DNA of 32,000 nucleotides from Mucisphaera calidilacus (lineage in GTDB: Bacteria > Planctomycetota > Phycisphaerae > Phycisphaerales > Phycisphaeraceae). The notes under the pieces were generated by a model, which searched no databases, was not told the DNA's origin, and saw only the letters and a program-made list of their open reading frames with translations. This document shows positions 11,488 to 15,146 of the stretch, in pieces. Made by a program: the position numbers and the translations under genes. The stretch's first letter is position 1, and each line of letters starts with the position of its first letter. The stretch lies in the NCBI RefSeq assembly GCF_007748075.1, contig NZ_CP036280.1, positions 270,001-302,000 on the forward strand, given 5' to 3'.

Positions 11488-12072
11488 TTATGAGGGGTCG
11501 GCGGGTGAGTCGGGTCGGTCGATCTGGTCGACGAGGGGGACTTGTTGGGTGCCTTGGGTGACGTGGATGGCTTTCTGGAAGAAGAGGTTGTTGGGGATGC
11601 GGATGACGCCTTGGTCTTCGTGCTGGAGGACGGTGTAGAGGAGGGTGAAGTCGATGACCTTGCCGCGTGTGGCTTCGCCCATGAAGGCGATGGTGTCGCC
11701 GATCATGAAGGGTCGTGTGATGAGGAGGATGAAGCAGCAGAGGAGGTTGGAGAGGATGGACCAGACGGCGAAGAATCCGATGGCGACGAGCGCGAGGATG
11801 GCGGTGAGTGTGGCCCAGGCGTCGTCGAGGATGCCGGCGGTTTTGAGGGCGTAGAAGAGTAGGATGACGGAGCTGATCCAGAAGAGGATCCGGTTGATGA
11901 TGCGTGCGATGCCTGGCGAGATGCGGTCGCGTCGGACGAGTGCGGTGAGGGACCGCCTGGCCATGGTTTTGGCGACGAGGAGGATGACGAGGACGACGAG
12001 GACGCGTAGGAGTGAGGGCCCGTAGAGGGTGAGGAGGTCGGGAGCGGTTTGTGCGAGGGTGGTGTTATTCAT
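11488..12072 (-). CDS. Small mechanosensitive ion channel (MscS family)
   Basis: 194 aa with three hydrophobic helices, then an MscS beta-domain-like segment PFMIGDTIAFMGEATRGKVIDFTLLYTVLQHEDQGVIRIPNNLF. Confidence 0.7.
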   Translation of the reverse strand: MNNTTLAQTAPDLLTLYGPSLLRVLVVLVILLVAKTMARRSLTALVRRDRISPGIARIINRILFWISSVILLFYALKTAGILDDAWATLTAILALVAIGFFAVWSILSNLLCCFILLITRPFMIGDTIAFMGEATRGKVIDFTLLYTVLQHEDQGVIRIPNNLFFQKAIHVTQGTQQVPLVDQIDRPDSPADPS

Positions 12073-12149: not shown

Positions 12150-13005
12150 CACGGACCTGCACCGGGGAGGCTATGAGGTTTGTCGAGCACGGACCTGCAG
12201 GAACAGGTCCGTGGCACCGGGGAGGTGGTGAGGTTTGTCGAGCACGGACCTGTAGGAACAGGTCCGTGGCACCGGGGAGGTGGTGGGGTTTGTCGAGCAC
12301 GGACCTGTAGGAACAGGTCCGTGGCACCGGGGAGGTGGCGGGGTTTGTCGAGCACGGACCTGCAGGAACAGGTCCGTGGCACCGGGGAGGCTATGAGGTT
12401 TGTCGAGCACGGACCTGTAGGGACAGGTCCGTGGCACCGGGGAGGTGGTGGGGTTTGCCGAGTACGGATCTGCAGGAACAGGTCCGTGGCACCGGGGAGG
12501 TGGTGGGGTTTGCCGAGTACGGATCTGCAGGAACAGGTCCGTGGCACCGGGGAGGTGGCGGGGTTTGTCGAGCACGGACCTGCAGGAACAGGTCCGTGGC
12601 ACCGGGGAGGTGGTGAGGTTTGTCGAGCACGGACCTGTAGGAACAGGTCCGTGGCACCGGGGAGGTGGTGGGGTTTGTCGAGCACGGACCTGTAGGAACA
12701 GGTCCGTGGCACCGGGGAGGTGGCGGGGTTTGTCGAGCACGGACCTGCAGGAACAGGTCCGTGGCACCGGGGAGGCTATGAGGTTTGTCGAGCACGGACC
12801 TGTAGGGACAGGTCCGTGGCACCGGGGAGGTGGTGGGGTTTGCCGAGTACGGATCTGCAGGAACAGGTCCGTGGCACCGGGGAGGTGGTGGGGTTTGCCG
12901 AGTACGGATCTGCAGGAACAGGTCCGTGGCACCGGGGAGGTGGCGGGGTTTGTCGAGCACGGACCTGCAGGAACAGGTCCGTGGCACCGGGCACCGGGGA
13001 GGTTG
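12150..13005 (+). repeat. Upstream tandem array: one truncated plus 15 head-to-tail copies of a 55-bp hairpin/G-rich unit (REP-like)
   Basis: Unit starts (tgtcg/tgccg) fall at 12181, 12236, 12291, 12346, 12401, 12456 ... 12951, exactly 55 bp apart. Consensus: tgtcgagcacggacctgYaggaacaggtccgtggcaccggggaggtggtggggtt. Stem is cacggacctg/caggtccgtg. Segment 12181-12565 is identical to 12566-12950. Confidence 0.95.
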
Positions 13006-13031
13006 TGGTGTAAAGATGTATTTATTATAGT
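13003..13031 (+). promoter_or_regulatory. Putative promoter of the transposase gene (TTGTGG - 17 nt - TATAGT) in an AT-rich island; predicts a leaderless or near-leaderless mRNA
   Basis: TTGTGG at 13003-13008 and TATAGT at 13026-13031; the ATG at 13039 is 8 nt downstream and has no SD sequence. The inverted repeat gtaaaga (13010-13016) / tctttac (13032-13038) brackets the -10 element. Confidence 0.35.
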
Positions 13032-13038
13032 TCTTTAC

Positions 13039-13527
13039 ATGATGATGTCGTATCGTAATGAGATGAGGCGTCGTGAAGTCGTCGGTCCTCGGTTTTTGAC
13101 ATTCTCTTGTTATCGACGATTTGCGTTGTTTCGTGAGGTTGCATGGCGTGATCTGTTTGTTTCTTCGCTCTTGTCTGCACAAGCGAGGTATGGATTTCGT
13201 CTTTATGCTTGGGTTGTGATGCCTGAGCACGTGCATCTGGTACTTGATCCGAAGCGGGTTGCGACCGGTGACGTCCTCCGATCGATCAAGCAGCCTGTGG
13301 CGCAGCGAGCAATTCGTGTCTGGCGTCAACAAGGATCCTCAATTCTGAAGGCAATCGCAGTAGGAGATGGGTATCGGTTCTGGCAGGCAGGCGGGGGATA
13401 TGACCGGAATGTCAGAGATGAGGATGAACTGGTGCAGAAGATTCGTTATGTCCGGGAGAACCCGGTGAAACGTGGATTGGTCGAGCGACCAGAGGATTGG
13501 GCATGGTCGTCGGTCTCGTGGGGATAG
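13039..13527 (+). CDS. REP-associated tyrosine transposase (RAYT; IS200/IS605-like Y1 HUH TnpA family)
   Basis: HUH motif in AWVVMPEHVHLVL. C-terminal block FWQAGGGYDRNVRDEDELVQKIRYVRENPVKRGLVERPEDWAWSS carries the catalytic Tyr. The N-terminal strand PRFLTFSCYRR also fits. The track ORF (12445..13527) extends spuriously into the repeat array. Codons end in A/T visibly more often than in neighbouring genes. Confidence 0.85.
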   Translation: MMMSYRNEMRRREVVGPRFLTFSCYRRFALFREVAWRDLFVSSLLSAQARYGFRLYAWVVMPEHVHLVLDPKRVATGDVLRSIKQPVAQRAIRVWRQQGSSILKAIAVGDGYRFWQAGGGYDRNVRDEDELVQKIRYVRENPVKRGLVERPEDWAWSSVSWG

Positions 13528-13894
13528 AGCACGGACCTGTAGGAACAGGTCCGTGGCACCGGGGAGGTGGTGGGGTTTGTCGAGTACGGACCTGTAGGAA
13601 CAGGTCTGTGGTACCGGGGAGGTGGCGGGGTTTGTCGAGCACGGACCTGCGGGAACAGGTCCGTGGCACCGGGGAGGTGGCGGGGTTTGTCGAGCACGGA
13701 CCTGTAGGAACAGGTCCGTGGCACCGGGGAGGTGGTGGGGTTTGTCGAGCACGGACCTGCAGGAACAGGTCCGTGGCACCGGGGAGGTGGTGGGGTTTGT
13801 CGAGCACGGACCTGCAGGAACAGGTCCGTGGCACCGGGGAGGTGGTGAGGTTTGTCGAGCACGGACCTGCAGGAACAGGTCCGTGGCACCGGGG
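13527..13894 (+). repeat. Downstream tandem array: about 7 copies (5 full, 2 partial) of the same 55-bp unit in the same orientation
   Basis: Unit starts at 13578, 13633, 13688, 13743, 13798 and 13853, 55 bp apart. The first unit begins at the last base of the transposase TAG stop. The array ends 7 nt before the icd stop codon. Confidence 0.95.
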
Positions 13895-13901
13895 TCGTCG
13901 G

Positions 13902-15146
13902 TCAGTCCATATGTTTGACGATGGCGTTGCCGAATTCGGAGCACTTGAGGAGTGTGGCGCCGTCCATGAGTCGTTCGAAGTCGTAGGTGACGGTCTTGGC
14001 GGCGATGGCGCCGTTCATGCCCTTGATGATGAGGTCGGCGGCTTCGTTCCAGCCGAGGTGTCGGAGCATCATCTCGCCTGAGAGGATGACGGAGCCGGGG
14101 TTGACCTTGTCCTGGTTGGCGTACTTGGGTGCGGTGCCGTGGGTCGCCTCGAAGATGGCGTGTCCGGTGTCGTAGTTGATGTTGCCGCCCGGGGCGATGC
14201 CGATGCCGCCGACGCAGGCGGCGAGGGCGTCGGAGATGTAGTCGCCGTTGAGATTGAGGGTGGCGATGACTTCGTACTCGGCGGGTCGGGTCAGGATCTG
14301 CTGGAGCATGGCGTCGGCGATGACGTCCTTGATGGTGATGGTCTTGCCGTTTTTGGGAGAGGTGAAGGTGCACCACGGGCCGCCGTCGAGCTCGGTGGCG
14401 CCGAAGTGTTTTTTGGCGGTCTCGTAGCCCCACTGCATGAAGGCACCCTCGGTGAACTTCATGATGTTGCCCTTGTGGACGAGGGTGACGGAGTCGCGTT
14501 CGTTGTCGATGGCGTACTGGATGGCGGCTTTGACGAGTCGCTCGGTGCCTTCCTGGGAGACGGGCTTGATGCCGATGCCGGCGGTGTCGGGGAAGCGGAC
14601 CTTGGCGAAGTGGTCGGGGAAGTTCTCTTTGAGGAGTTGTTTGGCTTTTGTGCAGTCGTCGGTGCCGTGCTCGAACTCGATGCCGGCGTAGATGTCCTCG
14701 GAGTTCTCGCGGAAGATGACCATGTCGGTGAGGTCGGGTCGCTTGACGGGCGAGGGGACGCCTTCGAACCATCGGACGGGCCGGAGGCAGGTGTAGAGGT
14801 CGAGGATCTGCCGGAGGGCGACGTTAAGGGATCGGATGCCGCCGCCTGTGGGCGTGGTCAGGGGGCCTTTGATGCCGACGAGGTATTGGCGGAAGGCGTC
14901 CAGGGTCTCGTCGGGCAGCCAGTTGCCGGTCTGGTTGTGTGCTTTTTCGCCCGCGAGGACCTCGAGCCACGCGATTTTGCGGTCGCCTTGGTAGGCCTTG
15001 TCGACGGCGGCGTCGAGGACGGTCTGTGAGGCGTGCCAGATGTCGGGTCCGGTGCCGTCGCCCTCGATGAAGGGGATGATCGGGTTGGCGGGGACGTCGA
15101 GTTTGCCGTTGTTGAGGGTAACGGGCTGGCCGGTGGCGGTGGTCAT
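13902..15146 (-). CDS. icd: NADP-dependent isocitrate dehydrogenase (homodimeric type)
   Basis: 414 aa with [27 protein letters not shown] and [26 protein letters not shown] motifs. GGAGA RBS upstream of ATG 15146. Confidence 0.95.

Follow-up and report, generated by a model that had tools for sequence, protein, structure and literature searches.

How did a transposase-like gene of the planctomycete Mucisphaera calidilacus come to stand between two long arrays of one and the same hairpin, every copy of which points in the same direction? The gene lies in a stretch of 32,000 nucleotides (contig NZ_CP036280.1, positions 270,001 to 302,000, referred to here as the window) and encodes a REP-associated tyrosine transposase (RAYT), REP being the repetitive extragenic palindrome. 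An earlier note made on this DNA had suggested a distinct RAYT-repeat arrangement. The explanation that we consider probable is that the locus is a REPtron which has been locally amplified and is possibly decaying, and not a new system; RAYT activity would have seeded the arrays and host recombination would have expanded them. The layout, in which a RAYT truncated at its C-terminus is flanked on either side by head-to-tail arrays, is extreme and one-directional but not unprecedented.

The RAYT gene and its flanking arrays

On the evidence of its sequence, the open reading frame (ORF) between the two arrays encodes a RAYT-class HUH-Y1 protein. The ORF contains the motifs MPEHVHLVL and IRYVRENPVKRGLVERPEDWAWSS, and in profile searches it scored above the cutoffs of both NF047646 (REP_Tyr_transpos, an NCBIfam equivalog; 95.5 bits against a cutoff of 80) and PF01797 (Pfam Y1_Tnp; 26.1 bits against 23), whereas it failed the IS200 equivalog NF033573 (20.2 against 55). 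The best sequence match in the PDB was 4er8, the E. coli TnpA_REP, and a 100% identical protein (P0001) carries the NCBI name 'REP-associated tyrosine transposase [Mucisphaera calidilacus]'. RAYT is a known type of domesticated hairpin-cutting transposase gene, and the M. calidilacus copy is already correctly annotated.

The homologues of this protein number thousands, the closest of them (50-62% identity) coming largely from Phycisphaerales and Planctomycetota metagenome-assembled genomes (MAGs). In the homologue alignment H64-V-H66, Y137 and N141 are invariant or nearly so; an Asn four residues after the catalytic Tyr is the RAYT signature, and Gln occupies this position in IS200/IS605 (PMC3333891). 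The guide-contact block is present as well, as FWQAGGGYDRNVRD aligns with E. coli IWQPRFWEHAIRN (W94-Q95...E/D100-H/R101...R104, E. coli numbering). In E. coli the WQ...DR..R block contacts the guide tetranucleotide, and the D/R variant of the block has been described for RAYT subclasses 2.5 and 2.7 (PMC6006769). The structural comparison was made with an AlphaFold model of a homologue, P0007 (60% identical, pLDDT 93.6), and not of the window protein itself; the best match of this model was 4er8_A, over 176 columns, and its alignment with IS200/IS605 transposases extended over only about 126 columns.

Tandem Repeats Finder (TRF) detected one array at 12159-12991 (55-bp period, 15.1 copies, 93% matches, no indels) and another at 13527-13894 (55-bp period, 6.7 copies, 95% matches). 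When read in register, the upstream array comprises 15 units (12185-13009), and the locus as a whole holds 22 complete hairpins and one partial hairpin in strict 55-bp phase without unique spacers. Each unit consists of a 33-nt REP (GAGCACGGACCTG-YAGGAA-CAGGTCCGTGGCAC) and a 22-nt linker (CGGGGAGGTGGTGGGGTTTGTC). The hairpin CACGGACCTGYAGGAACAGGTCCGTG, searched for with up to three mismatches, gave 22 matches against a chance expectation of 0, all of them on the + strand and within the locus, with none elsewhere in the 32-kb window; a looser regular expression at the family level returned the same 22 hairpins. As far as the window shows, the amplification is confined to the two flanks of the gene. 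Together, the arrays and the RAYT gene fill the whole intergenic space between the icd and MscS genes.

Folded as single-stranded DNA, a single unit forms a 10-11 bp stem, the energies being -17 kcal/mol for the + strand (z = -6.6) and -15.5 kcal/mol for the - strand (z = -6.5). The foot-first form of the REP is that of the - strand, 5'-GTGC-CACGGACCTG-loop-CAGGTCCGTG-CTC. A REP is defined as an imperfect palindrome of 20-40 nt that lies outside genes and carries an unpaired GT[AG]G foot; the repeat is extragenic and 33 nt long with a 10-11 bp stem, but its foot is GTGC. Inverted or alternating REPs, which make up REP doublets forming hairpins (REPINs) and bacterial interspersed mosaic elements (BIMEs), were absent, as no inverted copy occurs in the locus or in the window.

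These results are in good agreement with the description of the locus in the earlier note. It had reported a Y1/RAYT protein, which the profile searches with PF01797 and NF047646 bore out, and about 23 head-to-tail 55-bp units (about 16 and about 7) in exact phase and without unique spacers, which we count as 15 and 7 complete units and one partial. The hairpin of the unit was recovered in the single-strand folding, and the common direction of the two arrays in the placement of all 22 hairpins on the + strand. The TAG stop of the gene does run into the first downstream unit, the last base of the stop being the first base of that unit, and the neighbouring genes were recognised as MscS and icd by the Pfam matches given in Table 1.

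REPs beside RAYT homologues and in the literature

Eighty metagenomic loci encoding relatives of the RAYT were gathered together with four from exact look-ups; orientation was surveyed in 82 loci (L012-L093), and L094 and L095 were read directly. A REP was called in the survey where a hairpin carried a GCAC tail, a rule with a chance rate of about 0.8 per 32 kb. At L012, L013, L014, L094 and L095, hairpins of the form CACTGACC...GGTCAGTG+GCAC adjoin RAYTs sharing 55-62% identity with the M. calidilacus protein, and the hairpins of the closest homologues, (G)AGCACTGACC-loop-GGTCAGTGGCAC, have the M. calidilacus sequence apart from one compensated stem pair. Judged by this agreement, the M. calidilacus hairpin is the cognate REP (CACNGACC...GGTCNGTG, GTGC foot) of a RAYT family that is widely distributed in Planctomycetota. 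When perfect hairpins were sought without bias up to 400 nt from the 82 homologues, 104 were recovered, of which 55 had the 5' foot GTGC and 13 the next most frequent one, GTGG. This Planctomycetota-centred RAYT family uses the GTGC foot rather than the canonical GT[AG]G. Moreover, REP-like hairpins were concentrated beside the genes, with 127 within 700 bp of the 82 homologues compared to 17 in the 198 kb further out.

The orientation of the REPs sets M. calidilacus apart from most of these loci. REPs were found on both sides of the gene at 34 loci, 28 of which had inverted flanks (24 in the canonical form with the tails away from the gene, four in the other inverted form) and six direct ones. 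The inverted flanks associated with RAYT genes are therefore usual but not universal in this clade, and M. calidilacus lacks them. The longest run of REPs in the same orientation in any surveyed flank was 3, as compared to 15 and 7 in M. calidilacus; since short-read assemblies would collapse longer arrays, the run of 3 is a lower bound. All five closest relatives mix orientations, for example -+ gene +- at L012 and -+ gene -+ at L095. The suggestion that same-direction flanks depart from the usual inverted ones is upheld by these counts. At L014 (4534-4727, Ga0210110_1000065), four alternating REPs spaced at 54-56 bp lie downstream of a RAYT with 55% identity; the period is the same as that of the M. 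calidilacus unit, but the arrangement is BIME-like.

Head-to-tail repetition of a single REP next to a RAYT gene was observed at L067 (60 bp x 3), L026 (66 bp x 2) and L020 (60 bp x 2.4), and tandem units made of inverted pairs adjoin the gene at L021 (125 bp x 2.9) and L073 (152 bp x 2.7). L067 (Ga0134121_10357885) is among the closest parallels: three 60-bp head-to-tail REP units stand upstream and one REP in the same orientation stands downstream of a RAYT that is 44% identical. However, L067 has 3 + 1 copies only, on a 1.3-kb short-read contig that may have collapsed more, and its REPs have the opposite orientation relative to the gene.

In the literature, tandem arrays of evenly spaced single REPs are known from P. 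fluorescens SBW25, in which ordered REPIN clusters lie beside each RAYT (PMC3116915). One third of rayt genes adjoin BIMEs, REPs can directly follow the stop codon, BIMEs have taken up rayt 3' ends, and there are species whose REPs accumulate near the gene alone (PMC2817692). Furthermore, strand transfer by TnpA_REP can assemble tandem copies, and explicit amplification models exist (PMC3333891). The single-REP arrays of SBW25 (Bertels & Rainey 2011) and the 'singletons reiterated in tandem with flanking DNA' (Di Nocera 2013) share with the present arrays the head-to-tail succession of one REP and a constant spacer in strict phase, in several to about a dozen copies. However, they were described away from RAYTs, the RAYT-adjacent clusters of SBW25 being REPIN clusters, whereas the M. 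calidilacus array surrounds and truncates its RAYT. The species description of M. calidilacus is silent on repeats and transposases (PMC8882080).

Compared with the known REPtrons (E. coli yafM, Stenotrophomonas, Pseudomonas, Marinomonas), the M. calidilacus locus has the HUH-Y1 protein with Y-x-x-x-N, the WQ...D-R..R block and 4er8 as its best PDB match. The gene is likewise bracketed by its own REP hairpin with a 4-nt foot, a REP abuts the stop codon, the REPs are concentrated beside the gene as reported for Marinomonas and Thauera, and REP-containing units are tandemly amplified there. Unlike in those systems, all 22 REPs (22/22) point one way with no inverted partner and hence no REPIN or BIME, the foot is GTGC and not GT[AG]G, a single REP with a 22-nt linker forms the amplified unit, and the protein lacks the C-terminal tail of the family. 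The publications that we count for the REPtron reading are PMC2817692, PMC3116915, PMC3733652, PMC3333891 and PMC8266576. The premise of the earlier note that REPs do not form long uniform tandem arrays was overstated in view of PMC3116915, PMC2817692 and PMC3333891 and of the small head-to-tail arrays at L067, L026 and L020. What remains of its distinct arrangement is the extreme one-directional layout; a new kind of system it is not, as each ingredient has a precedent.

When genome contigs were scanned for the hairpin with CGGACCTGYRGGRACAGGTCCG, 11 single matches were obtained, mostly chance ones inside genes (e.g., L007). At L002 (1-71, JBGALI010000028.1, a Phycisphaerales MAG) the contig starts inside a REP pair, and the complete hairpin, CACGGACCTGCAGGAACAGGTCCGTG, is identical to that of M. 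calidilacus, while the spacer differs in being 33 nt long and very G-rich. This MAG is probably a closer relative. L002 was also considered as a tandem REP pair, but the fragment before the hairpin is better explained as an inverted partner, and the locus gives no evidence of an array. A protein search with six-frame peptides of the arrays returned no match at E <= 10, its power being low as the array ORFs of M. calidilacus are themselves not in the database.

A separate observation concerns L020 (3115-3650, WBZO01029190.1), where CAGTTGATGAGATGAATCTCTAAATAACAAAAACGGGGTGGCACGGA appears to span the last codons and the stop of the RAYT homologue and recurs three times downstream together with REPs. 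Here the repeat module seems to have taken up the rayt 3' end, a kind of capture for which Nunvar 2010 gave the description in proteobacteria.

Array growth, the missing C-terminal tail and competing explanations

Units 1-7 of the upstream array are base-for-base identical to units 8-14, and the latest step of array growth is this perfect duplication of a 385-bp, seven-unit block. A perfect duplication of seven units is a signature of unequal recombination or slippage and not of unit-by-unit enzymatic addition. The linker variants suggest that older blocks of 3-4 units were duplicated as well. Substitutions in the stem occur in units 6, 7, 13 and 14 and in downstream unit 2, and all of them are uncompensated C-to-T changes on the + strand. 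The earlier note had also considered a domesticated enzyme that maintains a structured array; with growth by seven-unit block duplication and the tail of the enzyme lost, nothing suggests so.

A second kind of repeat marks the downstream array. The 10-mer GTCGTCGGTC has three copies in the window against 0.38 expected, all of them in the locus (13078-13087, 13505-13515 and 13893-13903), and the 11-nt direct repeat GGTCGTCGGTC brackets the downstream array and the last 12 nt of the RAYT ORF. This bracketing suggests insertion of the array into the 3' end of the RAYT gene, or its expansion there.

The 3' end of the gene is also where the protein departs from its family. After WAWSS, ARWYAGxxxGxVxID...(W) follows in 21 of the 21 aligned homologues, with an Arg and a Gly that hardly vary, and this tail was confidently placed in the P0007 model (pLDDT 95-98). 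The M. calidilacus RAYT ends with WAWSSVSWG directly before the stop codon, running straight into the array without the conserved tail of about 15-20 aa. According to the phmmer alignment, it stops near E. coli residue 140. In E. coli, TnpA_REP truncations at 131 and 144 are severely defective; the loss of the last 13 residues makes the enzyme hyperactive and the loss of 21 abolishes its activity (PMC8266576). As the truncation point lies near residue 140 and both delta131 and delta144 are defective, the tail-less enzyme is, by an indirect analogy, probably impaired or altered.

The composition of the gene is unusual too. Its GC content is 52.8% as compared to 63.1% for the window, and its third codon positions hold G 38, T 31, A 18 and C 13%, whereas in the other + strand genes G makes up about 58% and A about 1% of these positions. 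This suggests a codon composition consistent with horizontal acquisition or relaxed selection.

On the explanation that we favour, the locus is a REPtron, that is, the gene of a RAYT (a TnpA_REP-class HUH-Y1 nuclease/ligase of single-stranded DNA) together with its cognate REP hairpin, in which the REP and its 22-nt linker multiplied on the spot to give 15 head-to-tail units on one side of the gene and 7 on the other. It may have been acquired horizontally as a cassette, its REPs then multiplying mainly in cis, and the foreign-looking codon composition of the RAYT gene would fit such an origin. The first tandem copies could have arisen when the RAYT cut single-stranded DNA at equivalent sites next to one REP after another and transferred the strands, as in the amplification model of Ton-Hoang 2012 but with a single REP in place of the inverted pair. 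Host recombination or slippage would then have expanded and homogenised the arrays, the inverted partner REPs that are present in relatives would have been lost, and the enzyme would have lost its tail during array growth.

Several observations weigh against this explanation. The irregular junctions at unit 0 and unit 15 resemble microhomology deletion or duplication; their breakpoints were considered as RAYT cleavage sites and rejected, being ambiguous within 2-3 nt and microhomology-like. No signature, whether biochemical or in the sequence, marks any of the junctions as made by the RAYT, and the direct repeat GGTCGTCGGTC is not an expected product of a Y1 enzyme. What the truncation does to function is judged solely from the E. 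coli analogy, and the two families may have tails that do not correspond. Finally, other intergenic DNA amounts to only about 1.3 kb of the window, and therefore the lack of another REP copy in it is weak evidence for confinement to the locus.

The last point bears on the strongest of the rival explanations, which is nevertheless unlikely in our judgement. According to it, the genome harbours an ordinary REPIN population of many dispersed and mostly inverted REPs, and the locus is a RAYT-adjacent cluster that slippage has expanded; this is compatible with the identification of the RAYT. Relatives do have REP doublets away from the RAYT (e.g., L012 6886-6975), a third of rayt genes adjoin BIMEs (PMC2817692), and a window that samples so little other intergenic DNA has little power to reveal further copies. 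However, 0 of the 22 copies has an inverted partner and no other copy lies in the remaining 30 kb. In this RAYT family REP-like hairpins are rare at more than 700 bp from the gene (0.09 per kb), and the genome is compact, with 91.7% coding density (PMC8882080). The contig scan for the hairpin also gave no Mucisphaera match outside the window, which counts only if the M. calidilacus genome was among the contigs scanned.

It is more doubtful still that the tail-less RAYT itself extends both flanks of its own gene by adding units of REP and linker head to tail, purely in cis, in one direction and without dispersal. A deregulated enzyme would do so by repeated one-strand cleavage and strand transfer of 55-nt units, and the single orientation on both sides would follow. 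The loss of 13 C-terminal residues raises the activity of E. coli TnpA_REP (PMC8266576), tandem copies can be put together by strand transfer in vitro (PMC3333891), the units keep an exact 55-bp phase without indels, and the catalytic residues are all intact. However, the most recent event duplicated a block of seven units and not a single one, the truncation maps between two defective E. coli truncations, delta131 and delta144, the uncompensated C-to-T changes persist in the stems, and a cleavage-site signature could not be identified.

We regard as quite improbable that the array is a structural or regulatory element selected by the host, either an icd 3' mRNA stabiliser or terminator or an insulator or structured leader for MscS, with the RAYT being incidental. 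REPs have been reported to stabilise mRNA, to terminate transcription and to bind gyrase (reviewed in PMC2817692 and PMC3333891); in M. calidilacus the arrays occupy all of the icd-MscS space, form stable hairpins on both strands, and have a putative - strand sigma-70-like site pointing into the upstream one. On the other hand, 0 intrinsic-terminator-like sites and no Rfam match were found, the stem mutations are uncompensated, no conserved array is seen in relatives at equivalent positions, and the perfect recent duplication argues for neutral turnover over selection.

A recently arrived and multiplied IS200/IS605-like autonomous element, with end hairpins on the same strand as in IS608, can be almost dismissed: the HUH-Y1 fold, the subterminal hairpins on one strand at both ends in IS608 and ISDra2, the direct orientation of the flanking hairpins and the outlying composition of the gene recall such elements, but the protein scores 20.2 against the NF033573 cutoff of 55 while passing the RAYT equivalog, has Asn and not Gln at Y+4 (PMC3333891) along with the RAYT-specific motifs, and is accompanied by 22 identical 'ends' with no second gene copy in the window and no sign of gene mobility. 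The regularly spaced direct palindromic repeats also recall a CRISPR array, a reading which was rejected given that the 22-nt 'spacer' is invariant save for point variants, that none of the six neighbour proteins scanned with Pfam is Cas-like, and that no Rfam match was obtained.

How REPs multiply and what RAYTs do in the cell is still unsettled, and enzyme-driven tandem amplification has been shown only in vitro. The locus described here, where REPs of one orientation alone have multiplied 22-fold around a RAYT without its tail and the genome is compact (3.5 Mb), would be a convenient natural test case for strand specificity, for what the C-terminal tail does, and for the respective shares of the enzyme and of host recombination. 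Its value is that of an extreme example and not of a new principle, as each element is precedented. If one-directional amplification in cis by the RAYT itself were true, the locus would be the first in-genome snapshot of RAYT-catalysed tandem amplification, which has so far been proposed from in vitro data only, and a single REP, not only an inverted pair, could be the amplified unit. The weight of the locus would rise if the REP were confined to it and the tail-less enzyme were active.

Coordinates, signal scans and strand composition

Table 1. Features of the M. calidilacus RAYT locus (positions are those of the window).
Feature	Position	Strand	Remarks
MscS-type channel gene, left neighbour	11488..12072	-	PF00924; start codon 78 nt from the array
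Partial unit 0	12150..12184	+	5' arm CACGGACCTG fused to linker CACCGGGGAGGCTATGAGGTTTGTC; 17 nt (loop and 3' arm) missing
Upstream units 1-7	12185..12569	+	Copy 1 of the 385-bp higher-order repeat
Upstream units 8-14	12570..12954	+	Copy 2 of the 385-bp higher-order repeat
Upstream unit 15	12955..13009	+	REP intact; linker with a 7-nt microduplication (CACCGGG CACCGGG), then diverges
AT-rich leader, 29 nt	13010..13038		Between the upstream array and the RAYT start codon
RAYT / TnpA_REP gene, 162 aa	13039..13527	+	HUH H64, H66, Tyr137 and Asn141 intact; C-terminal tail missing; GC 52.8%
11-nt direct repeat GGTCGTCGGTC, left member	13505..13515	+	Within the W-S-S-V codons of the RAYT gene
Downstream array, 7 units in register (TRF 6.7)	13527..13894	+	Same orientation as the upstream array
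11-nt direct repeat GGTCGTCGGTC, right member	13893..13903	+	Follows immediately on the last unit; overlap with the icd stop codon
Isocitrate dehydrogenase gene (icd), right neighbour	13902..15146	-	PF00180; C-terminus complete; stop codon 7 nt from the last unit

The terminator scan gave no intrinsic-terminator-like site, and the Rfam scan of the window gave no match. Between 11900 and 14100 a single sigma-70-like match was found (ACGACA-16-TATAAT, 10/12, - strand, 13051 to 13024), which is putative as it is a consensus match only. This site sits in the AT-rich leader and the start of the RAYT gene and points leftwards through the upstream array to the MscS gene.

The + strand of the window consists of A 15.1, C 22.1, G 41.0 and T 21.7%, with a GC skew of +0.30 (0.16-0.37 per 4-kb bin), compared with which the skew in the arrays is 0.34-0.36. 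The skew tracks the DNA strand and not the direction of the genes, the third codon positions having 56-60% G where the gene lies on the + strand and 72-73% C where it lies on the - strand. The 'G-rich tail' that the earlier note ascribed to the repeat is only background, the whole window being equally G-rich on the + strand, and for the same reason a G-quadruplex or another special role of the G-rich linker was dropped. The related Phycisphaerae loci L094 and L095 look similarly G-rich on one strand.

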